Positions 3,894 to 34,086 of a stretch of DNA of 34,300 nucleotides are shown in pieces. The translations under genes and the position numbers were made by a program. How positions within the stretch are numbered: the stretch's first letter is position 1; each line of letters begins with the position of its first letter. The notes beneath the pieces are model-generated. The model was not told the origin of the DNA, did no database searches, and was given only the letters and a program-made list of their open reading frames with translations. The stretch covers positions 1-34,300 of the forward strand of contig JAJRYP010000065.1 in NCBI GenBank assembly GCA_024275695.1, written 5' to 3'. The DNA comes from Patescibacteria group bacterium. Its GTDB lineage: Bacteria > Patescibacteriota > Gracilibacteria > UBA1369 > PNNO01.

Positions 3894-5744
3894 TTACATA
3901 ATCGCTCCGATTCTTCGAAGAATTTCTCTGTCAACAAATGACTTTTCACGTCCGTATGTGAGCCTGGAAAGCTGTTTAATGGCGCTGCCGACATCCGGAT
4001 CGCCGGTTTCCAGATATGGATTAATTGGAGTTATACTGAAAGGTTTTGATGGTTGTGTATCAATGGAAAGTTTTATTACCGCTTTAAACTTATCGAGATT
4101 GATCAAATCCTGATCCGAAAAAACGGGCGCCATTTCCTTTGCCATATATTCGGCATCTTGTGCGCCTATCTTATATGACATCATTGTCCCAACGTTGCCA
4201 AATACGGCATCCTTAACTTTAGATTTACCGTCTTCTCCTTCAAGCTGTTTTATATATTGATGCGCAATAATAAGTCCGAGTCTATATTTTCTCGCTTCGG
4301 AGAGTATACTCTCGATACTTTCGGTAATATAGTTTTGAAATTCATCTATGTATAAGAAGAAATCTTCACGTTTTTCTTTTGATTGAGATTGTCTTCGCAG
4401 GGCCGCCATTTGAATTTTTTGTACAATAATAAGACCTAAAAGTTTTGAATTGATATCTCCGGTCGTTCCTTTTGAAAGATTCATAAGAAGAATCTTTTTT
4501 TCATTCATCGCTTTTGCAAAATCAAAGCTTGATTTACTTTGTCCGATAATATTTCGCATCATTGTATTTGTGACAAACTGACCAAACTTGGAAGCAAAAT
4601 ACGGTATCATTTCCTGTTTTTCTCTTGCTCCGGTTTTGGCCATCTGATGCTCCCAGAATGATTTTACAATCGGATTTTTTACCTTCTCGACTTTAAGTTT
4701 TTGGTAAGCGTCATCAGTAAAAAGTCGTACAATATCGGTTAATGCGCCTCCTTCGGGATCTTCAATTAATGTTAAACAACCATTACGAAAATAGTCCTGA
4801 ATTCGCGGCCCAAACACTTCTTCGTTAAACAGTTTAATCATGATATTCATGGCATCTAAAGCTACAAGTTCGCGTTCTTCGTCCGTTTCGGCTTCGAGTA
4901 GATTAATTCCGATGGGACGTTCAAGGTCGGCTGGATTGAAGTAAATGACGGCGTCCGCGCGTTCACGGGGGATAAAAGGGATAATATCTTCGATAAGCTG
5001 TCCGTGAGGATCAACAATACAAAGTCCTTTGCCGTTTTTAAGATCCTGACGAATCATTACTTGCATAACCGAACTTTTACCTGTACCCGTTTGTCCGATG
5101 ACGTAGAAATGTCTGAATCTGTCTTCATTTTTAATGCGCACCTCTTTTGATTCTCCGCGATAATAATTATGTCCGATTAGAATGCCTTCGGTAGGTAAAT
5201 TTGATGGCGGAGGGGCGATTTTAAACCTTTGCCATGCGATATGTGGCGATCTGTTGTATTTGGTGTTCGGAATGTGAAAAATGCTGGCCAGCTCTTCGCA
5301 GCTAAAAACCGATTTTTTTTGCCTAATCGAGCATGTAAGCGACCTTTTGAAACTTCTAAATATAAAATCTCTAATAAGTTTACGCTCGGAATGCCACTTT
5401 GTATAAGTAAAACTATTTCCGTTTGTGCTTGTATATTGTGAAAATGCGCTGCGAATATTGGTTAAATGTGTTTTAACTTCATGTGTTGTTTTTGAAGATG
5501 CAACTATTCTTATAATAGACTCATATCCCGGTTGCGAATTTTTTTCTTCTATAGCCTTAACTTCTTCTTCCGTTGCCGGAGTGGTTCTGCCGGAATCTTG
5601 CATCTTATCTTCAGTCATCTTATCTCCGCGTACCATTAACTCAAAAAGGGCGCTAAACCAGGAAACGGGATTAAACGGGGAACGTCCCGACTTATTTTTC
5701 TTATTAAATGTTTCTTCCGCCATCATGCGTCCTTTTTTTGCCAT
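3894..5744 (-). CDS. TraD/VirD4/HerA-like P-loop ATPase, C-terminal part of a split paralog of the gene at 27591..30128
   Basis: 616 aa. Walker A VIGQTGTGKSS, Walker B FFLYIDEFQNY, and an AHQYIKQLE sensor-like motif. It aligns end to end with residues ~230-845 of the 845-aa protein (for example CIVDPHGQLIEDIIPFIP against CVIDPHGDLIEDILTYIP). Confidence 0.8.
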   Translation of the reverse strand: MAKKGRMMAEETFNKKNKSGRSPFNPVSWFSALFELMVRGDKMTEDKMQDSGRTTPATEEEVKAIEEKNSQPGYESIIRIVASSKTTHEVKTHLTNIRSAFSQYTSTNGNSFTYTKWHSERKLIRDFIFRSFKRSLTCSIRQKKSVFSCEELASIFHIPNTKYNRSPHIAWQRFKIAPPPSNLPTEGILIGHNYYRGESKEVRIKNEDRFRHFYVIGQTGTGKSSVMQVMIRQDLKNGKGLCIVDPHGQLIEDIIPFIPRERADAVIYFNPADLERPIGINLLEAETDEERELVALDAMNIMIKLFNEEVFGPRIQDYFRNGCLTLIEDPEGGALTDIVRLFTDDAYQKLKVEKVKNPIVKSFWEHQMAKTGAREKQEMIPYFASKFGQFVTNTMMRNIIGQSKSSFDFAKAMNEKKILLMNLSKGTTGDINSKLLGLIIVQKIQMAALRRQSQSKEKREDFFLYIDEFQNYITESIESILSEARKYRLGLIIAHQYIKQLEGEDGKSKVKDAVFGNVGTMMSYKIGAQDAEYMAKEMAPVFSDQDLINLDKFKAVIKLSIDTQPSKPFSITPINPYLETGDPDVGSAIKQLSRLTYGREKSFVDREILRRIGAIM

Positions 5745-6420: not shown

Positions 6421-8193
6421 TTAAGCTTTCTTGGGTTTCCTTACTTCCACATGCATTTCGGCCACTTGATCAAGCGGTAATTCGGAAGGAGCGTCTAACA
6501 TTAGATCGCGAGCTTTTTGATCTTTTGGAAATGCCATTACTTCTCGGATATTAGGTTCTTTTTCAAACAGCATCACGATCCTGTCCATTCCAAGTGCGAT
6601 TCCACCATGCGGAGGAGCTCCATATTCAAAGGCTCGAAGCAGATGGCCAAAACGTTTATCTGCGTCCTCGGGAGAAATTTTTAAAATATCAAAGATTTTG
6701 GATTGAAGCTGTGGTTCATGAATTCTAATACTGCCGCCGCCAAGTTCTACTCCGTTTAATACCAAATCATATGCGTAAGCTCGAACTTTTTCAGGATTTT
6801 TATCCAATAATTCAAGATCTTCTTCGAGAGGATGCGTGAAAGGATGATGTTCCGCTGAAATTTGTTGTTCTTCGGCATTCCAGTGAAACATTGGAAAATT
6901 TGTAATCCATAAATAACAAAGTTTATCTTCATCGATTAAATCAAGTTTTTTCCCGCAAGCAAGTCTAACCTGTCCTAACGATTCACATGCTACCTGAAAT
7001 TTGTCAGCTGCAAAAAATACAATGTCGCCATCTTGCGCATTTGTATGTTCACGAATTTTTGTAAGCTCATCTTCTTTAAGAAATTTAGTAATACCTCCGT
7101 CGGGGCCGCTATTTGTATATTTGATATATGCCAAGCCTTTGGCTCTGTAAGTTTTTGCAATTTCTTCAAGTTCATCAATTTCTTTGCGAGTAAACCGCGC
7201 GCCTCCGTTAACTTTTAGGGCTTTCACTTTTCCACCTTGTTGAATTGTGCCGCTAAAAACTTTAAATTCGCAATTGGTAACGACATTACTTATATCAACA
7301 AGCGGCATCTCGAACCGTAAATCCGGCTTATCACTACCGTAATTATTCATAGCGTCATACCAGGAAAGCTTTTTAAAAGGTTCAAACTGAATTTTTCTTT
7401 CAGGATAAAGCTCTTTTGAAAGAGCAATCATCAAGTCTTCAATAACTTGCATCACATCATCTTCATGAACAAAGGACATTTCTATATCAAGTTGCGTAAA
7501 TTCCGGCTGTCTATCCCCGCGTTGATCCTCATCTCGAAAACATCGCGCCATTTGATAATATTTATCAAAAGACGAAATCATTAGGAGTTGTTTGAGCTGC
7601 TGTGGCGATTGTGGAAGAACATAAAAATGACCCGGAAACAAACGTGAAGGGACAAGGTATTCACGGCTTCCTTCAGGCGTTCCTTTTATCATCATAGGGG
7701 TTTCTATATCCAAAAAACCGGATTTGTTCAAATATTCTCTTATAAAATTAAATATTTTATGCCTGTTAACTATATTTTTATGCAAACGTTCACGTCTAAG
7801 GTCGATATAGCGGTATTTTAAACGAATATCTTCGCCGACTTCTTTATCTTGATCAACTTCAAACGGAGGAGTTTTAGCTGTATTTAAAATAACCGCTTTT
7901 GTAACCAAAACTTCTATTTCACCTGTTTCCAAATTTGGATTTGTTTGTCCTTCAGGTCTTTTTCGAACAGCTCCTTCAATTTCTATTACGTATTCAGATC
8001 GACAATCATCGCCAATTTGGAAAGTATCCTTATACTTTGGATCAAAAACAATTTATGTAAGACCATATCCGTCTCTAAGATCGATAAAAATAAGTCCTCC
8101 GTGATCGCGTCTGCGATGTACCCATCCGGCAAGTTTTATTTTTTCCCCTTCGTCGGAAGCTCTGAGTTCATTACAAGTATGCGTTCTATACAT
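6421..8193 (-). CDS. aspS: Aspartate--tRNA ligase interrupted by a single in-frame TAA (codon 47, minus-strand 8055..8053)
   Basis: The track ORF 6421..7932 (503 aa) is the class II catalytic core. Reading the same frame upstream from the ATG at 8193 gives [57 protein letters not shown]...NLETGEIEV. This is the canonical AspRS OB-fold N-terminus, with the stop at the conserved Gln of the G-x-x-Q-V/I-V-F motif. Confidence 0.9.
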
Positions 8194-8278
8194 ATTAATA
8201 GTTATAATTAATAATTAACAGTAACATATTCTACTGATACTCGTTTATCTTCGCAACAAAACTCTTAACGATTAGTAC

Positions 8279-12726: not shown

Positions 12727-12811
12727 TGGTGCCGGGGAGAGGACTCGAACCTCCACGGGTTGCCCCACTAGTTCCTAAGACTAGCGTGTCTACCAATTCC
12801 ACCACCCCGGC
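12727..12811 (-). tRNA. tRNA-Leu (anticodon UAG), class II with long variable arm, CCA encoded
   Basis: The reverse complement is GCCGGGGTGGTGGAATTGGTAGACACGCTAGTCTTAGGAACTAGTGGGGCAACCCGTGGAGGTTCGAGTCCTCTCCCCGGCACCA. The acceptor arm is GCCGGGG/CCCCGGC, the anticodon stem is CTAGT/ACTAG and the loop is CTTAGGA. Confidence 0.9.
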
Positions 12812-13086: not shown

Positions 13087-14181
13087 ATGAATACAACTGC
13101 ATCTAAACAAGGATCACGTAGCGTATCGATACGCAATGTGAACTTGTCTGAAATACTTGAGGATATGTTTATGGTCCTCAGCGATAAAGAGAAAGATGTG
13201 ATAGTTAAGCGTTTTAGTTTAAACAATAAGCCAAAGATGACTTTAGAGAAAATCGGACAAGAATTTTCCGTTACCCGAGAGAGGATAAGACAGATAGAGA
13301 AGATTGCGCTTGGAAAGCTTAAAAGAACGGTAGAGAATACACAATTAAACGAAATAAGCATTCTTGCAAACGAACTTATGCAAAATAAAGGAGGAGTTAG
13401 TACGGAAGAATCCTTAATTGGCGGAATTCTAAATCTTATTGGAAGCACGGAGAAGTTAGACGCTTATATTATTCGTCTGGCTTTAAACATTACTCCCGAA
13501 TTGGAAAAAACAGATAAAAGTAATTTATATTACCCGTTTTGGCGTTTTAATACTCTTCCGGAAAAAGATGTACGAGTAATGATTGATGCCGGAATTTCCA
13601 TTCTCAACAAGAAAGGTGATGTCCTTGACGAACAAACTCTTGCAAAACAACTGGTTGCCGCGGTTGCCTTGAAAGGAATCGAAGCATCTAAAGAAACTGT
13701 TATTTCCGCTCTTGAAGTTGATCGTCGAGTTAAAAGAATGAAAGATGGAAGCTTTGGCCTTATGAGTTGGAGACATATTAATCCGCGAAGTATTAGAGAT
13801 AAGGCGTTTATTGTTCTTAAACAATCAAACGCACCTTTACATTTTATTGAAATTGCAAATAAGATTACCGAATCCGGCTTTGATAAAAAAGTTGTTACTA
13901 CGCAAGCTGTTCACAATGAACTTATCCGATATGATCAGTTCGTATTAGTTGGAAGAGGTCTTTATGCCCTTAAAGAATGGGGTTATAAAAAAGGAACTGT
14001 TGCCGATGTTATTAAGGAACTTCTTGCAAAGAAAAGTCCTTTAAGCAAACAGGAGATTATTCAGGGCGTTCTAAAACAGCGCCAGGTTAAGAAAGGAACA
14101 ATTTCTCTTAATCTTCAGAAAAATCCACACTTTGTTCGTGTCGGTCGCGCAATGTACGCGCTGGATATGAGCAAAAAATAA
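13087..14181 (+). CDS. Sigma-70 region 4-only protein with C-terminal HARE-HTH-like winged-helix domains (paralog 1)
   Basis: 364 aa. The N-terminus LSDKEKDVIVKRFSL...MTLEKIGQEFSVTRERIRQIEKIALGKLKR is a textbook sigma region 4.2 HTH, and no region 2 or 3 is present. The C-terminus (PLHFIEIANKI...VHNELIRYDQFVLVGRGLYALKEWGY, then a second similar unit) resembles the RNAP delta/HARE-HTH fold. TTGACA boxes lie upstream at ~12931 and ~13025. Confidence 0.7.
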   Translation: MNTTASKQGSRSVSIRNVNLSEILEDMFMVLSDKEKDVIVKRFSLNNKPKMTLEKIGQEFSVTRERIRQIEKIALGKLKRTVENTQLNEISILANELMQNKGGVSTEESLIGGILNLIGSTEKLDAYIIRLALNITPELEKTDKSNLYYPFWRFNTLPEKDVRVMIDAGISILNKKGDVLDEQTLAKQLVAAVALKGIEASKETVISALEVDRRVKRMKDGSFGLMSWRHINPRSIRDKAFIVLKQSNAPLHFIEIANKITESGFDKKVVTTQAVHNELIRYDQFVLVGRGLYALKEWGYKKGTVADVIKELLAKKSPLSKQEIIQGVLKQRQVKKGTISLNLQKNPHFVRVGRAMYALDMSKK

Positions 14182-14514: not shown

Positions 14515-14521
14515 ATCGAGA

Positions 14522-14794
14522 CTAAAACTTATAAATATCTTTTCTGTGTTTTATAGTAAGAATTAATAGGATTTTAATATTCCCTTTTTTATCTAAATCA
14601 AATATAGTTCTGTATTCACCAATTCTAAATCTATATGTCCCAAACTTTGGTTCTTTCAATTTTTTTGCATGAGACAATGGATTTTTTTGTCTTTGATAAA
14701 ATTTTAGTTTATCTAAGATTTTCTTAGCAGTTCTTTTTGATAACGCCGCTAAATCTTTGTAAGCCTTTTTTGTATAAACAAGTTTGTATTCCAT
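14522..14794 (-). CDS. RelE/ParE-family type II toxin
   Basis: 90 aa. The pattern YRFRIGEYRTIFDLD...ILLILTIKHRKDIY is typical of RelE/StbE. The ATG directly abuts the stop of the upstream antitoxin ORF (TAAATG). Confidence 0.8.
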   Translation of the reverse strand: MEYKLVYTKKAYKDLAALSKRTAKKILDKLKFYQRQKNPLSHAKKLKEPKFGTYRFRIGEYRTIFDLDKKGNIKILLILTIKHRKDIYKF

Positions 14795-15043
14795 TTACAG
14801 TCCTAATTTTCTGTATACTTCATTTTCACTATATACTTCTCCTTTTTTGATTTGTTCCCTGGCTTCTTCAATATCTAACGCAAGATTTTCCAAAATCGCC
14901 TCGTCTTCATCAATGGGGTTGACCTCCAGTATAGGCATTGAATGATACATTACTATATATCTGATTTTTTTGTTTCTTGCCTCTTTCCAGATATTAGTGA
15001 TATTTTGACGAAATTTTTTTATTCCAATAATTTTTGTAGTCAT
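14795..15043 (-). CDS. Phd/YefM-like type II antitoxin
   Basis: 82 aa, located upstream of and abutting the toxin. The N-terminal pattern (GIKKFRQNITNIWKEA...IVMYHSMPILEV) matches the Phd/YefM fold. Confidence 0.65.
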   Translation of the reverse strand: MTTKIIGIKKFRQNITNIWKEARNKKIRYIVMYHSMPILEVNPIDEDEAILENLALDIEEAREQIKKGEVYSENEVYRKLGL

Positions 15044-15097
15044 AGTGAAAATTTAGTGCTACTTAGAGTGTACATTTTTGATTGTAAGATGTCAAAA

Positions 15098-15122
15098 GGA
15101 AAAAATAGCCTCCCATGGGGGC
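15098..15122 (-). terminator. Candidate intrinsic terminator downstream of nadC
   Basis: On the minus strand, the GC-rich hairpin GCCCCCATGGGAGGC (one C.A mismatch) is followed by TATTTTTTCC. It is the only GC-rich patch in this AT-rich spacer. Confidence 0.4.
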
Positions 15123-15199
15123 GGAATTGACTTAATGTTCCAAAATTATTTTGCCCCTTCATTATATGACACGCTCATGTACACTCACGCTTCATAATT

Positions 15200-16183
15200 T
15201 TAAAGTCCGCCAATTTCCAATGATAAATCTATTGATTGGATTTTTTGTGTTAAAGCACCTATGGATAAAATATCTACACCCGTCTTTGCGTAATCTTCGA
15301 TATTTTGTTCGTTGATTCCGCCCGAAGCTTCATACAAACAAATATCATATAGAGATTCTTGCCGAAGTGCGTTTAAAGTCTTTTCGATTTCTTTCGGATT
15401 CATATTATCGAGCATCATAACAACTTCCTTAGGTATAATTTTTTTATTTTGATATTGTGTGATGAGCTTTACCGCTTCAAGTGCGCTCTTTATATCTTCA
15501 ATTTCAATTTCAAAAAATTTATAAGGATGTTTTGGAGGTTTAAAAGAGGTGAAAAGTTTTTTTAAATCGTATTTATAATAGGCAAGATGATTATCTTTAA
15601 TAAGAATTGAGTCCGCGAGATTTAACCTGTGTGTAGCACCGCCTGCGATAGTCACGGCTTTTTTATCGATAAGCCCCCATGTAGTTTTTCGTGTTGGAGC
15701 AACGCATATATTCGATTTTATTTTTTTTGCCTTATCAATAATTTTTTTAGATTCCGTAGCAATACCACACATATGTTGAAGAAGATTCAAAATGCTTCGC
15801 TCAGCCTTTAAAATATCTTTAATGTCGCCTTCTAATTCCATAAGCATATCGTCTTTTTTAAATTCTCTTCCATCTTCAAGACGTTGTGTTAGGTGAATTT
15901 GATTAAGTCGAGGCTTAAAAGCAGGATCGCTTTCCGAAACAAAATAATTGATCTCTTCTCCTCCGGCCATTATCCCGTCCTGATTGGCATATATTCTTGC
16001 CGGGACTTTTTGAGAATTATGAATAAGGCAGTCGCTTGTTATGTCTCCGTGTTCATTTAGATCTTTTTCAAGTTCCAGAAATGTATATCTAAAAACCCAT
16101 TGTTTATAAATAAGATTATTTACTGTTAAAAGATCTTTTTGATTAAATAGTTTTTCTGTTAGTTGAGTGCGATCTTTAATCAT
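15200..16183 (-). CDS. nadC: Nicotinate-nucleotide (quinolinate) pyrophosphorylase
   Basis: Motifs RKTTWGLIDKKAVTIAGGATHRLNLADSILIKDNH. The track ORF begins at a TTG at 16201, and I favour the ATG at 16183 (MIKDRTQ...). The start is uncertain. Confidence 0.85.
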   Translation of the reverse strand: MIKDRTQLTEKLFNQKDLLTVNNLIYKQWVFRYTFLELEKDLNEHGDITSDCLIHNSQKVPARIYANQDGIMAGGEEINYFVSESDPAFKPRLNQIHLTQRLEDGREFKKDDMLMELEGDIKDILKAERSILNLLQHMCGIATESKKIIDKAKKIKSNICVAPTRKTTWGLIDKKAVTIAGGATHRLNLADSILIKDNHLAYYKYDLKKLFTSFKPPKHPYKFFEIEIEDIKSALEAVKLITQYQNKKIIPKEVVMMLDNMNPKEIEKTLNALRQESLYDICLYEASGGINEQNIEDYAKTGVDILSIGALTQKIQSIDLSLEIGGL

Positions 16184-16220
16184 GCTAATATTGGTTCCCA
16201 AGCTACATTATTTTTATATC

Positions 16221-17297
16221 ATGCTTTCTGAAAAGTATAAAGTTCTATCGGATCCGGAATGTATGCCTTTAATTGAACAGGCTAAGAAAAAACTCGGAGA
16301 CAAGATTTTTATACTCGGCCATCATTATCAGCGTGATGAGGTTATTCAGTTTGTAGATGCGGTAGGGGATTCGTTGATGCTTTCACAAACTGCCGCGAAA
16401 ACCAAGAGTAAATACATTATTTTTTGCGGAGTGACTTTTATGGCTGAAACAGCCGATATTATAACCGGCGACGATAAGATTGTTCTGCATCCGGATCTTT
16501 CCGCAGGATGCCCCATGGCTGACATGGCTCCGGCAAGTCAGATTCGCAGAGCGTGGAAAGAACTTGAAAAAGTTATTGGAGATACATCAAATGTAGTCCC
16601 TGTTACATATATAAATAGTTACGCGGAAACGAAAGCCTTTTGCGGAGAGCGAGGCGGCGTTGTTTGTACATCATCCAACGCTGATAAAATATTGAAATGG
16701 GCTCTTTCCCAAAATAAAAAAGTTTTCTTTTTCCCGGATCAACATCTTGGAAGAAATACGGCACATAGACTCTCAATTACAAATGATCAAATGGTTTTAT
16801 GGGAACGCGAAAAAGAAAACGGAGGATTAAGTGAAGATAAAATCAAATCGGCTAAAATATATTTATGGAACGGATGTTGTCCGGTTCACGAACGATTTAA
16901 ATATGACGACTTGAAAACGATTAGAAAACGCGATCCTGAAATAAAAATACTTGTTCATCCCGAAGTCCCGGAAGAACTTGCTAATTATGCAGATTACATG
17001 GGGTCAACTCAGTATATTGTTAATAAAATCGAACAAGCGCCAAAGGGGTCTAAATGGGCAATTGGAACAGAAATTCATCTGGTATCGCGGCTTGCAAAAA
17101 ATCATCCGGATAAAAAAATAATTTTGCTTGGAACACCAATTTGTATGTGCTCGATGATGGATAGAATTTCTCCCCAGTACTTGTTGTGGACATTGGAGAG
17201 TCTTGTAAATGACAAAGTCATAAATGTTGTGAAAGTTCCGGAGAATATAACACAAAACGCAATCAAAGCTTTAGATAGAATGTTTGAATTAACCTAG
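16221..17297 (+). CDS. nadA: Quinolinate synthase
   Basis: ILGHHYQRDEVIQFVDAVGDSL and GCPMADM motifs with conserved Cys positions. The track ORF starts at 16167, which overlaps nadC, so the ATG at 16221 (MLSEKYKV...) is more plausible. Confidence 0.88.
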   Translation: MLSEKYKVLSDPECMPLIEQAKKKLGDKIFILGHHYQRDEVIQFVDAVGDSLMLSQTAAKTKSKYIIFCGVTFMAETADIITGDDKIVLHPDLSAGCPMADMAPASQIRRAWKELEKVIGDTSNVVPVTYINSYAETKAFCGERGGVVCTSSNADKILKWALSQNKKVFFFPDQHLGRNTAHRLSITNDQMVLWEREKENGGLSEDKIKSAKIYLWNGCCPVHERFKYDDLKTIRKRDPEIKILVHPEVPEELANYADYMGSTQYIVNKIEQAPKGSKWAIGTEIHLVSRLAKNHPDKKIILLGTPICMCSMMDRISPQYLLWTLESLVNDKVINVVKVPENITQNAIKALDRMFELT

Positions 17298-21601: not shown

Positions 21602-22678
21602 CTACTTTTTTTTAAGTTTGTACTGTTCACGACCAACTCTTTCGAATTGTGGCTTATTCTTGAGATTTAAAATAATAGTTATCTTTTTAACCTGTCTCTG
21701 TTTCATTACTTCTTTAATAATATCCTCTTGTGATTTAAGTTTGCCGTCTTTAAGAATATCTTCAATGATGTCTGCAACAGTTCCTTCTTTATATCCCCAT
21801 TCTTTAAGAGCATAAATTCCTCTACCAACAAGTACGAACTGATCGTGTCTGATCAGCTCATTGTGAACCGCTTGTAAATTAATACGTTTATTGTCGAATT
21901 GAAGTTCAGTGATTTTATTAACAATTTCCACAAAGTGAAGAGGTTTTTTATTCTTGTTTAATACATAATAAATCTTGTCGCGAAGCGTTTTTGGATTAAT
22001 ATGTCTCCAACTTGCCAAGCCGATACCACCTTCCACCGGCTTAAGTCTCTTATCAAGTGTAAATGTTGATATAACTTGCGGAAGATTACTGTGATCGAGC
22101 TCTTTAAAATGTTTACGCAGTTCATCAAAAATTTTACTGTGAGTGTAAATATCGGATTTTTTACTCAAAATATCAATTGTTTTCTCGGTAATATCTTTTA
22201 TATAAGTATGATCAATATTGGCATATTTGATATATGGGTGATAATTAATAGTGTTTGGAGTTCTTACAAGTTCTTTATCCAGTGTAAGTGAAAGATTGAT
22301 TGCGTTTTTATTAATTTCTACGTCATTTTTATTTAAAATATTAATTAGTTCCGCAAATAGATTTTCTTCCGTCATTATCCCTCCTTTTTCCTTTAAGATT
22401 TCCTTAATGAATTCATTGAGTGCATTAAGATCCGTATTCCCAACGTTTCTTTGTAATTTTGTAAGTGCGTTTTTTTCAATTTGTCTGATTCTTTCTCGAG
22501 TGACATTAAACTCTTTTCCTATCTCTTCAAGTGTTGCTCTATAAGTATTATCCAGATTAAATCGTCTTTTAATTACATGTTTTTCCTTTTGTGAAAGCAG
22601 TATCAGGAGGTCCTGTACTATTTTTTGAGCATTTTGAAATGTTCTTACAGGTGTCTTTTTGATATCCATAGAAAGCAC
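21602..22678 (-). CDS. Sigma-70 region 4-only protein with C-terminal HARE-HTH-like domains (paralog 2)
   Basis: 358 aa with the same architecture as 13087..14181: LSQKEKHVIKRRFNL...ATLEEIGKEFNVTRERIRQIEKNALTKLQR, and C-terminal PLHFVEIVNKI...AVHNELIRHDQFVLVGRGIYALKEWGYKEGTVADII. Confidence 0.7.
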   Translation of the reverse strand: MLSMDIKKTPVRTFQNAQKIVQDLLILLSQKEKHVIKRRFNLDNTYRATLEEIGKEFNVTRERIRQIEKNALTKLQRNVGNTDLNALNEFIKEILKEKGGIMTEENLFAELINILNKNDVEINKNAINLSLTLDKELVRTPNTINYHPYIKYANIDHTYIKDITEKTIDILSKKSDIYTHSKIFDELRKHFKELDHSNLPQVISTFTLDKRLKPVEGGIGLASWRHINPKTLRDKIYYVLNKNKKPLHFVEIVNKITELQFDNKRINLQAVHNELIRHDQFVLVGRGIYALKEWGYKEGTVADIIEDILKDGKLKSQEDIIKEVMKQRQVKKITIILNLKNKPQFERVGREQYKLKKK

Positions 22679-27590: not shown

Positions 27591-30128
27591 ATGTGGGATT
27601 ATATTCTGCAGCATCCGCTTAGAACACTTGTAATAGTTGTTGTACTTGTAAGTTTATACAGATACACGGTCTGGCTTTTTCGCTATTTTATACAACTTTA
27701 TTATGCGAAAAAGCTTACATATATGAGAATAACACTTCCTCGTGAAGACACTCAAAAAGATAAAGACAAGCAAGTTGAAAAAGATTTTCGTGAAAAAATA
27801 GGCGTGATGGATCAATTTTATAGAAATATACATGAAATTCGTGAACTTTCATTCAAAAATCGTATTCGCAATTTCTTTTTAAATCTGGACGTTGTTTCTT
27901 TTGAAATGGTCGCGATGAGCAAAGAGGTAAATTTTTATGTGGTAACTTACCCTTTTTATCAAAATATTATTGAAAAACAAATTACATCGTATTATCCGGA
28001 TGCCGATATTCAGATGACAGAAGCTTACGTGGTTGATCCTCCCGGAAATAAGCAAAGATGCTTTTATGCTTACCTGAACAGAGAAAATTGGTATCCAATT
28101 AAAACATACAAAAAAATTGAGAACGATCCGTTAAACGATATGACAAACGTTCTTTCCAAACTTGGTGATGATGACAAGGCGGTTTTTCAGTTTGTTATAA
28201 GTCCGCGTTCAGACAGGTGGAGAAAAAAAGCCGAACGAATGGGAACAAAACTTTTCTTAAATAAACTCGGGAAAGGTTGGGTTCCGAGAATTCCGATAAT
28301 CGGGACTTTACTTAACTGGATATTTAGCATTTTTACCGGTATTGCATTTGGATACGATCGTATGAAGAAACAAGCCCCAAACACGGGCGCCCCGGAAGGA
28401 AGCCAATATGTACGTATGCTTCAAACTAAAGAGGAAGTGGCAAAAATGATTGGTGAAAAAGCCAGTCAGGTTGGTTTTGACGTAAGTGTTAGGGTTATTG
28501 CGTCGTCAAAAACTCGCGGGGATGCCTACAGACTCGGAAACAATATGATTTTGGCATTGAATCTTTTTAAAGATGCCGCAATGAATTGGTTTCAGACCAA
28601 AAGGTTATTTTTTCTCGATTCAATCAATAATAAAATTATGCTTCATGCTTTTAAAAATAGATTACATAATTTCAAACCGCTACCGTTTTTCGGAGAAAAA
28701 GAATCAATAATGGTTCCGGAAGAACTTGCAGCTTTGTATCATTTCCCAAATAGTAGATATAATTACACGCCGGTTATTAAATGGCTCAAATATAAAGTTG
28801 TGCCGGCTCCTGTTAATACTCCGCAGGAAGGAGTTTATCTGGGTGATAATGTATATCGGGGAGTTCGAAAAAAAGTCCATATACTTAGGCAAGATCGAAC
28901 AAGACATCAATATATAATCGGAAAATCCGGTGCAGGTAAATCCGTATTCATCAGTTTTATGGCAAGACAGGATATTAGGAATGGTGATGGAGTTTGCGTT
29001 ATCGATCCACATGGTGATCTTATTGAAGACATCTTGACTTATATTCCTAAAGAAAGGGCAAAAGATGTAATCGTTTTTAACCCTTCCGATCAGCAGCGAC
29101 CAATGGGGCTTAATATTCTGGAAGCCGATACGCCCGAACAACAAGATCTTGCTTCAAGTCAGGCTACCGAGATTTTCATTAAATTGTTTGGTGACGAAAT
29201 ATTCGGACCGCGCATTCAACACTATTTTAGAAATGCTTGTTTAACACTAATGGAGGACAAAGAGGAAGGAGCGACTTTGATTGATGTCCCTCGAATGTTT
29301 GTTGATGACGATTTTATGAAATACAAAGTGAAAAAAGTCAGAAATCCGGTTGTGCGTTCATTTTGGGAACATGAATATGCTCATACGGGGGAGAGGGAAC
29401 GTCAAGAAATGATTCCGTATTTTTCTTCTAAATTCGGTCCGTTTATCACAAATTCTATAATGCGTAATACCATCGGACAAACAAAATCCGCATTCAATTT
29501 TCGTGAAGTCATGGATAATCAAAAAATACTCCTTATCAATCTTTCCAAAGGTAAGATCGGCGATTTAAACACACAGCTTTTAGGACTGGTTGTAGTTGCG
29601 AGAATCCAAATGGCCGCGATGAGTCGCGCAGATATGCCGGAAGATCAACGTAAGGATTTTTATTTATATGTAGATGAGTTCCAGAACTTTGCGACAGACA
29701 GCTTCTGTTCGATTCTGTCCGAAGCCCGGAAATATCATTTAGCCTTAATTATGGCGCATCAATATATTAAACAGCTTGAAAAGAAGCAAGACACATCTAT
29801 CCGTGATGCGGTGTTTGGTAACGTAGGAACAATGATGTCATTTAAAGTTGGCGCGGATGATGCCGAATATATGGCAAAAGAATACGCTCCTGTTTTAACC
29901 GAAGCAGATGTACTTGGGATCGCAAACTACAAAGCATATATTAAACTAAACATCAAAAATACAACATCAAGACCTTTCTCTCTTGAAACTATTTACGATA
30001 CAACCGGCAAAAACAAGAAAGTTGCTGAAATCGTGAAAGAATATTCGAGAATGAAATACGGACGAAAGAAAGAATTCGTTAATCAGGAAATTGCAGCGCG
30101 AATCGGTATTGACCTAAGTTCGGAATGA
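27591..30128 (+). CDS. Membrane-anchored TraD/VirD4/HerA-like P-loop ATPase, full-length paralog
   Basis: 845 aa. TM1 is LRTLVIVVVLVSLYRYTVWLF. It is followed by a roughly 150-aa domain shared with ORF 5786..6358, then a second hydrophobic segment (IPIIGTLLNWIFSIFTGIAFGY). Walker A IIGKSGAGKSV, Walker B FYLYVDEFQNF, and AHQYIKQLE. Confidence 0.8.
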   Translation: MWDYILQHPLRTLVIVVVLVSLYRYTVWLFRYFIQLYYAKKLTYMRITLPREDTQKDKDKQVEKDFREKIGVMDQFYRNIHEIRELSFKNRIRNFFLNLDVVSFEMVAMSKEVNFYVVTYPFYQNIIEKQITSYYPDADIQMTEAYVVDPPGNKQRCFYAYLNRENWYPIKTYKKIENDPLNDMTNVLSKLGDDDKAVFQFVISPRSDRWRKKAERMGTKLFLNKLGKGWVPRIPIIGTLLNWIFSIFTGIAFGYDRMKKQAPNTGAPEGSQYVRMLQTKEEVAKMIGEKASQVGFDVSVRVIASSKTRGDAYRLGNNMILALNLFKDAAMNWFQTKRLFFLDSINNKIMLHAFKNRLHNFKPLPFFGEKESIMVPEELAALYHFPNSRYNYTPVIKWLKYKVVPAPVNTPQEGVYLGDNVYRGVRKKVHILRQDRTRHQYIIGKSGAGKSVFISFMARQDIRNGDGVCVIDPHGDLIEDILTYIPKERAKDVIVFNPSDQQRPMGLNILEADTPEQQDLASSQATEIFIKLFGDEIFGPRIQHYFRNACLTLMEDKEEGATLIDVPRMFVDDDFMKYKVKKVRNPVVRSFWEHEYAHTGERERQEMIPYFSSKFGPFITNSIMRNTIGQTKSAFNFREVMDNQKILLINLSKGKIGDLNTQLLGLVVVARIQMAAMSRADMPEDQRKDFYLYVDEFQNFATDSFCSILSEARKYHLALIMAHQYIKQLEKKQDTSIRDAVFGNVGTMMSFKVGADDAEYMAKEYAPVLTEADVLGIANYKAYIKLNIKNTTSRPFSLETIYDTTGKNKKVAEIVKEYSRMKYGRKKEFVNQEIAARIGIDLSSE

Positions 30129-31983: not shown

Positions 31984-32060
31984 TGGTGGCAGGGGTGGGG
32001 ATCGAACCCACGACCTCGGGCTTATGAGTCCCGCGCTCTAACCAACTGAGCTACCCTGCC
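31984..32060 (-). tRNA. tRNA with CAU anticodon, elongator type (Met, or Ile2 if lysidine-modified)
   Basis: The reverse complement is GGCAGGGTAGCTCAGTTGGTTAGAGCGCGGGACTCATAAGCCCGAGGTCGTGGGTTCGATCCCCACCCCTGCCACCA. G1:C72 is paired, so it is not an initiator. The anticodon loop is CTCATAA, and there is an A31/G39 mismatch at the bottom of the anticodon stem. Confidence 0.85.

Positions 32061-34011: not shown

Positions 34012-34086
<75 letters not shown>

Follow-up and report, generated by a model that had tools for sequence, protein, structure and literature searches.

A private in-frame TAA at a conserved glutamine codon of aspS in a Patescibacteria contig is most likely a sequence artefact

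Does a TAA that interrupts an otherwise intact frame for aspartyl-tRNA synthetase (AspRS) reflect an unusual reading of the codon, a mutation that disables an essential gene, or a flaw in the deposited sequence? We addressed this question in the window, the whole stretch of 34,300 nucleotides that was analyzed, and by comparison with related genomes. The initial annotation had offered three explanations: a sequence error or minority allele, a very recent nonsense mutation, and site-specific readthrough or suppression. Of these, the first, widened to include a private allele, has by far the strongest support; a recent nonsense mutation is its main rival, and readthrough or suppression, for which no support was found, is unlikely.

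The aspS frame and its interruption

The minus-strand frame of aspS spans 590 codons and translation of 8193..6421 reveals exactly one internal stop. Features of the locus are as follows.

8193..6421, minus strand: aspS frame, bacterial-type AspRS, 590 codons with one interruption (translation, Pfam, and PDB matches)
8228..8256, minus strand: promoter-like TTGCGA-17-TAGAAT located 5' of the aspS ATG, 9 of 12 matches to consensus
8056..8193, minus strand: aspS codons 1-46, encoding the first OB-fold strands, outside the automatic ORF and fully conserved in alignment A1
8055..8053, minus strand: internal TAA, codon 47, equivalent to Gln46 in E. coli AspRS
6421..7932, minus strand: automatic ORF of 503 amino acids with a TTG start, corresponding to database protein P0013
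6423..6421, minus strand: terminal TAA of aspS, from translation

The description of the locus in the initial annotation is borne out by translation and Pfam. The automatic ORF, which starts at METGEIEV, lacks the OB-fold, and reading the frame upstream from 8193 restores the domain. Protein P0013 in the database is identical to this ORF and likewise begins METGEIEV without an OB-fold domain. The contig that encodes P0013 is exactly 34,300 nt long, and the window is therefore a complete deposited contig. In relatives, the TTG of the 503-aa ORF is the Leu codon of a conserved NLETGEIEV stretch. The 503-aa call is an artefact that the internal stop produces in gene calling, and its TTG is no real start.

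With Gln put at codon 47, the protein has the organization of AspRS. Pfam identifies an anticodon-binding OB-fold (tRNA_anti-codon, PF01336; residues 20-102, E = 1.7e-17), a tRNA-synt_2 domain (PF00152; residues 121-559, E = 7e-114), and a GAD domain (PF02938; residues 313-406, E = 2e-29). The Gln-restored protein also matches AspRS structures in PDB from end to end (E = 6e-187). In an alignment with E. coli AspRS (PDB 1C0A), codon 47 falls on Gln46, in GIVQVFF, in agreement with the earlier placement of the stop at an AspRS Gln, and the same site is Gln in the structures shown for AspRS of P. aeruginosa and two mycobacteria. In the E. coli complex, Gln46 presumably contacts anticodon base U35.

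The plus-strand base at 8055 is A in the deposited sequence, as had been reported, and relatives imply G. On the coding strand, the internal TAA is preceded by ...GGT CTT ACA and followed by ATT GTT TTT GAT. As deposited, aspS does not have an uninterrupted frame with Gln at codon 47. The first in-frame ATG, GTG, or TTG past the stop is a TTG at codon 88 and there is no Shine-Dalgarno-like sequence ahead of it. Except for the interrupted frame, the gene is a normal bacterial-type AspRS gene in every feature tested.

Genomic setting of the contig

The window has a G+C content of 35.7% and ~29 intact genes, typical of a Patescibacterium with a small genome, and no gene other than aspS is interrupted. 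Its genes include tsaE, dnaE, valS, hisS, dtd, rlmN, radC, nadA, and nadC, and others encode two VirD4-like ATPases, two proteins with sigma region 4 and HARE-HTH domains, LytR, DsbA, and a ParE toxin. Its closest relatives among sequenced genomes are the single-amplified genomes (SAGs) AM-312-G21, AM-311-A13, and AM-312-L06, together with MAGs of Peregrinibacteria and Peribacteria. The three SAGs are from a study of coastal sediment (PMC11919646) and are classified as Patescibacteria; Gracilibacteria; UBA1369; PNNO01. Synteny with AM-312-G21 (locus L002) extends over ~17 kb with 80-85% nucleotide identity, and the window therefore represents a species different from that of AM-312-G21.

Other features of the window are listed by coordinates.

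1439-1497: 59-nt overlap between the TsaE and HD-domain gene ORFs, which are on the same strand
3894-5744, minus strand: VirD4/TraG-like coupling-protein ATPase
12727-12811, minus strand: tRNA-Leu(UAG) gene
13087-14181, plus strand: protein of ~360 aa with N-terminal sigma-70 region 4 and HARE-HTH
14515-15195, minus strand: ParE-family toxin (PF05016) and an 82-aa ORF, in ORFs 14522-14794 and 14795-15043
15200-17297: nadC and nadA, encoding quinolinate phosphoribosyltransferase and quinolinate synthase, conserved with L002
16167-16201: divergent ORFs of nadC and nadA, sharing 35 nt at their 5' ends when nadA is started at a GTG
21602-22678, minus strand: paralogue, also of ~360 aa, of the protein at 13087-14181, with the same two domains
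27591-30128, plus strand: second VirD4/TraG-like coupling-protein ATPase
31984-32060 and 34012-34086, minus strand: tRNA genes with a CAU anticodon

The VirD4-like gene at 3894-5744 is syntenic beside aspS in more than 20 related genomes, and its product departs from the otherwise invariant alignment columns 270 and 332 by singleton changes, D to A and M to I, respectively. The sigma/HARE-HTH protein encoded at 13087-14181 shares 94% identity with its orthologue in L002 and is conserved across the order. In the ~680-bp toxin cassette, the TAA of the 82-aa ORF directly precedes the ATG of the ParE toxin, and the ORF presumably encodes the antitoxin of this toxin. In the syntenic L002, the HIT gene and nadC are immediate neighbors, whereas in the window the cassette separates them; it is therefore an indel of a toxin-antitoxin module. 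Both ORF overlaps are probably over-extensions of start codons by the ORF rule. The presence of genes for de novo NAD synthesis in a reduced, Patescibacteria-type genome is notable. The two CAU tRNAs could be initiator Met, elongator Met, or lysidine-modified Ile.

Codon 47 in relatives and selection on aspS

The glutamine interrupted by the stop had been called universally conserved, and this holds for bacterial-type AspRS, the only type examined. In alignment A1, all 24 of the nearest proteins with coverage of the site (61-90% identical) have Gln. A set of 26 genome loci, with identities as low as 47%, was retrieved through other peptides and chosen without reference to residue 47, and all 26 likewise encode Gln. 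At the DNA level, relatives have CAA or CAG. The initial annotation had proposed to check whether the TAA is conserved in orthologues, and an internal stop at the orthologous site is absent from every orthologue examined. Metagenome contigs were scanned with the motif H-G-G-x-I-F-x-D-x-R-D-x-Y-G-x-T-[codon], back-translated with degenerate bases, and at least 120 have CAR at the site and 0 have TAR. The protein collection contains no sequences of the same species, with the nearest being ~90% identical. A truncated homologue, P0019, was suspected of sharing the stop; its lesion is instead an extra T (+1) in a T-run.

In the nearest genome, L002, the sequence at the site is CTT ACA CAA ATT versus CTT ACA TAA ATT in the window. 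Because L002 has CAA in a 12-base context that is otherwise identical, one C-to-T change explains the TAA, as the initial annotation had proposed. The TAA is a single-base change that is private to this contig and unconserved.

Relative to L002, aspS is colinear and gap-free, with 92% amino-acid identity, a dS of ~1.4, and a dN/dS of 0.036 across the whole gene. The ratio is 0.085 ahead of the stop (codons 1-46) and 0.033 past it (codons 48-590), which means that strong purifying selection has acted on both segments for essentially the entire time since the two lineages diverged. The stop is the sole departure of the window from otherwise invariant columns of alignment A1, in which relatives have 0-10 departures. 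The absence of decay that had been noted in the remaining 543 codons is thus upheld by the retained invariant columns and by dN/dS. The promoter-like block TTGTTGCGAAGATAAACGAGTATCAGTAGAAT is near-identical in L002, and its TTGCGA-17-TAGAAT may act as a promoter, judging from its match to consensus. The single lesion, dN/dS of 0.036, conserved columns, and kept promoter-like block speak against a decaying pseudogene or redundant duplicate.

Explanations for the internal stop and comparison with known systems

We favor, with a probability of roughly 0.7, that the TAA is a private one-base lesion without function that most likely arose as an artefact, in amplification, from template damage, or in consensus calling. 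The TAA would be a C-to-T (CAA to TAA) difference in the deposited sequence that has no biological role. Its source may be an amplification artefact or lysis damage, an error of low coverage or of consensus calling, or a cytosine that was deaminated and left unrepaired in the template sampled. The organism's own aspS would be ordinary, functional, single-copy, and bacterial-type, with Gln47, and the 503-aa ORF would be what a gene caller makes of the broken frame.

Lesions in deposited aspS sequences are common. Among ~108 other public aspS loci, 5 (~5%) have unrelated lesions, each located elsewhere in the gene. Frameshifts are present in aspS of L027, L086, and L091. An in-frame TAA occurs near aspS codon 506 of L041, whose contig is covered only 3x, and L076, from an organism with code 25, has a TAG at a Tyr position, aspS codon ~129. 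Locus L001, found separately from the ~108-locus set, has one extra T (+1) within a T-run at 2720-2745.

Rates of error in single-cell workflows point in the same direction. The closest public relatives are SAGs from one study, and a benchmark of the workflow of their sequencing facility yielded 5 mismatches per 100 kb (PMC8443664). In the coding sequence of the window, 5.2% of possible substitutions make a stop. If the window is from a SAG, the expected number of artefactual nonsense changes is ~0.08 per 34.3 kb and ~2.7 per 1.2 Mb genome. The SAG-specific part of the argument is conditional on this origin. Cytosine deamination induced by lysis (or heat) and polymerase errors in the first round of amplification produce false single-cell variants (PMC8214697; PMC7923680). 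The coding-strand C to T in aspS is of the type expected of deamination or amplification errors. Base rates argue for an artefact rather than a real mutation, and we infer the former.

Some points count against an artefact. The rest of the contig has no other sign of a raised error rate. Across 680 invariant columns in five neighboring proteins (DnaE, VirD4-like, sigma-like, HIT, and one hypothetical protein), singleton changes number 2 in the window and 2 in L002, and no excess damage or raised error load is apparent elsewhere in the contig, a result that is compatible both with an isolated error and with a real mutation. In addition, a consensus of deep-coverage Illumina reads rarely carries substitution errors.

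The main alternative is that the nonsense mutation is genuine and very recent. The sampled cell or a minority genotype would carry a null aspS allele that is lethal or strongly deleterious and not yet purged, or one that is tolerated via a second, divergent AspRS or another route elsewhere in the genome. This explanation has an appreciable, if minor, chance of being correct. C-to-T is the commonest spontaneous change and, with no other lesion and a dN/dS of 0.036, an allele that has just arisen fits as well as an artefact does. For the same reason, a real inactivation must be very recent, which narrows the initial proposal of a recent mutation to an extremely recent one. Sampling of single cells can catch cells that are non-viable, and the closest relatives are SAGs. 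However, given typical bacterial mutation rates, a new nonsense mutation in an essential gene would be orders of magnitude rarer per cell than benchmarked workflow errors. A null allele of an essential gene would also not be fixed in a MAG that represents a population consensus. As for tolerance, relatives with closed chromosomes (OY969931.1, OY970195.1, and OZ246407.1) each have one aspS locus in a scan that is blind to archaeal-type paralogues, and the window has no second class IIb synthetase.

Explanations that invoke decoding of the stop have to contend with how TAA is used in the window. The 29 genes end in 17 TAA, 8 TAG, and 4 TGA stops, and the terminal TAA of aspS is where homologues end too. 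By comparison, there is one in-frame stop in ~10,000 codons, and 361 Gln codons are CAA or CAG. A six-frame scan uncovered a single stop that splits a homologous protein, in one frame only; its other cases of adjacent segments are neighboring genes or non-coding frames. With TAA serving as a terminator and only one frame interrupted, the organism therefore uses the standard code. Some other Gracilibacteria differ in this regard. Among orthologues on metagenome contigs, aspS of L106 has 23 in-frame TGA codons and that of L076 has 5, mostly at conserved Gly positions, and these reflect the UGA-to-Gly code (code 25). The lineage of the window, unlike L106 and L076, uses TGA as the stop in 4 genes.

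Under the standard code, the UAA could still be read as Gln at this one site, by a near-cognate tRNA-Gln(UUG) or an unlinked suppressor tRNA(UUA), and yield full-length AspRS. We regard this as very improbable. The stop is exactly at a Gln codon, one base off CAA, and the frame is kept on both sides of the TAA; Gln is among the residues inserted when UAA is decoded by near-cognate tRNAs. But both release factors recognize UAA, which among bacterial stops is the least leaky, and a general suppressor of UAA would be costly because TAA ends 17 of the 29 genes, aspS included. The stop is also unconserved in the relatives' proteins, genome loci, and metagenome contigs described above. Signals for recoding were likewise sought in the window. 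In a stretch of 141 nt that surrounds the stop, predicted folding is no more stable than in shuffled sequences (MFE z = +0.93), and a search of the window with Rfam recovered three tRNAs only and no recoding element. ARAGORN found tRNA-Leu(UAG) and two tRNA-Met(CAU) in the window and no suppressor tRNA, which agrees with the initial annotation.

The odds are correspondingly slim that the contig came from a live cell of an ultra-small, Gracilibacteria/Peregrinibacteria-like bacterium with a real TAA in its sole aspS and with UAA decoded as Gln to restore the wild-type protein. If true, it would be an early step to reassignment of a stop codon in a class that already reassigns UGA. It would also be a rare bacterial example of an essential gene saved by suppression, in a lineage that tends toward changes of the code.

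A still more remote scenario is an AspRS in two pieces, in which a 46-residue N-terminal peptide and a re-initiated C-terminal protein assemble non-covalently. Both parts are intact and nothing more speaks for it. The first available restart, the TTG at codon 88 that is not preceded by a Shine-Dalgarno-like sequence, would drop about half of the OB-fold. The cut also falls inside the beta-barrel and no relative is split there. Last, a change of genetic code in which UAA means Gln, as in ciliate code 6, has a precedent of sorts in relatives of the same class that read a stop as sense (TGA as Gly in L106 and L076), but the use of stop codons in the window effectively refutes it: TAA ends 17 of 29 genes at homologous C-termini and the lone in-frame TAA compares with 361 CAA and CAG codons for Gln.

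A private artefactual lesion thus remains our preferred explanation, and its main importance is for quality control. The practical effect is that a truncated AspRS without the anticodon-binding domain (P0013) is now in protein databases. A survey of completeness or metabolism might mistakenly conclude that the genome has no normal aspS.

The locus can be compared with several known systems. Like cases of reassignment (ciliate code 6 and code 25), it has a stop triplet where homologues have a sense codon. In recoded genomes, the reassigned triplet occurs many times per gene, as in L106, and is unused as a terminator, whereas the window has a single in-frame TAA and uses TAA as its main terminator. 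Like sites of programmed readthrough, the frame is maintained across the stop. Programmed sites are conserved in orthologues and usually have a leaky stop, a favorable context, or a downstream structure, and the site in the window has none of these. The encoded enzyme resembles E. coli AspRS (1C0A) and the non-discriminating AspRS of P. aeruginosa (4WJ3) in having an OB-fold, class II core, and GAD domain, and in its length; it differs in that the window copy has TAA at the codon equivalent to Gln46. The closest likeness is to the "internal stop" pseudogene calls in draft SAGs and MAGs, with one substitution in one assembly of an otherwise perfectly conserved essential gene. The lesion is of this kind, already known from draft genomes of uncultured organisms, and the benchmarked rate of the SAG workflow makes such internal stops routine.
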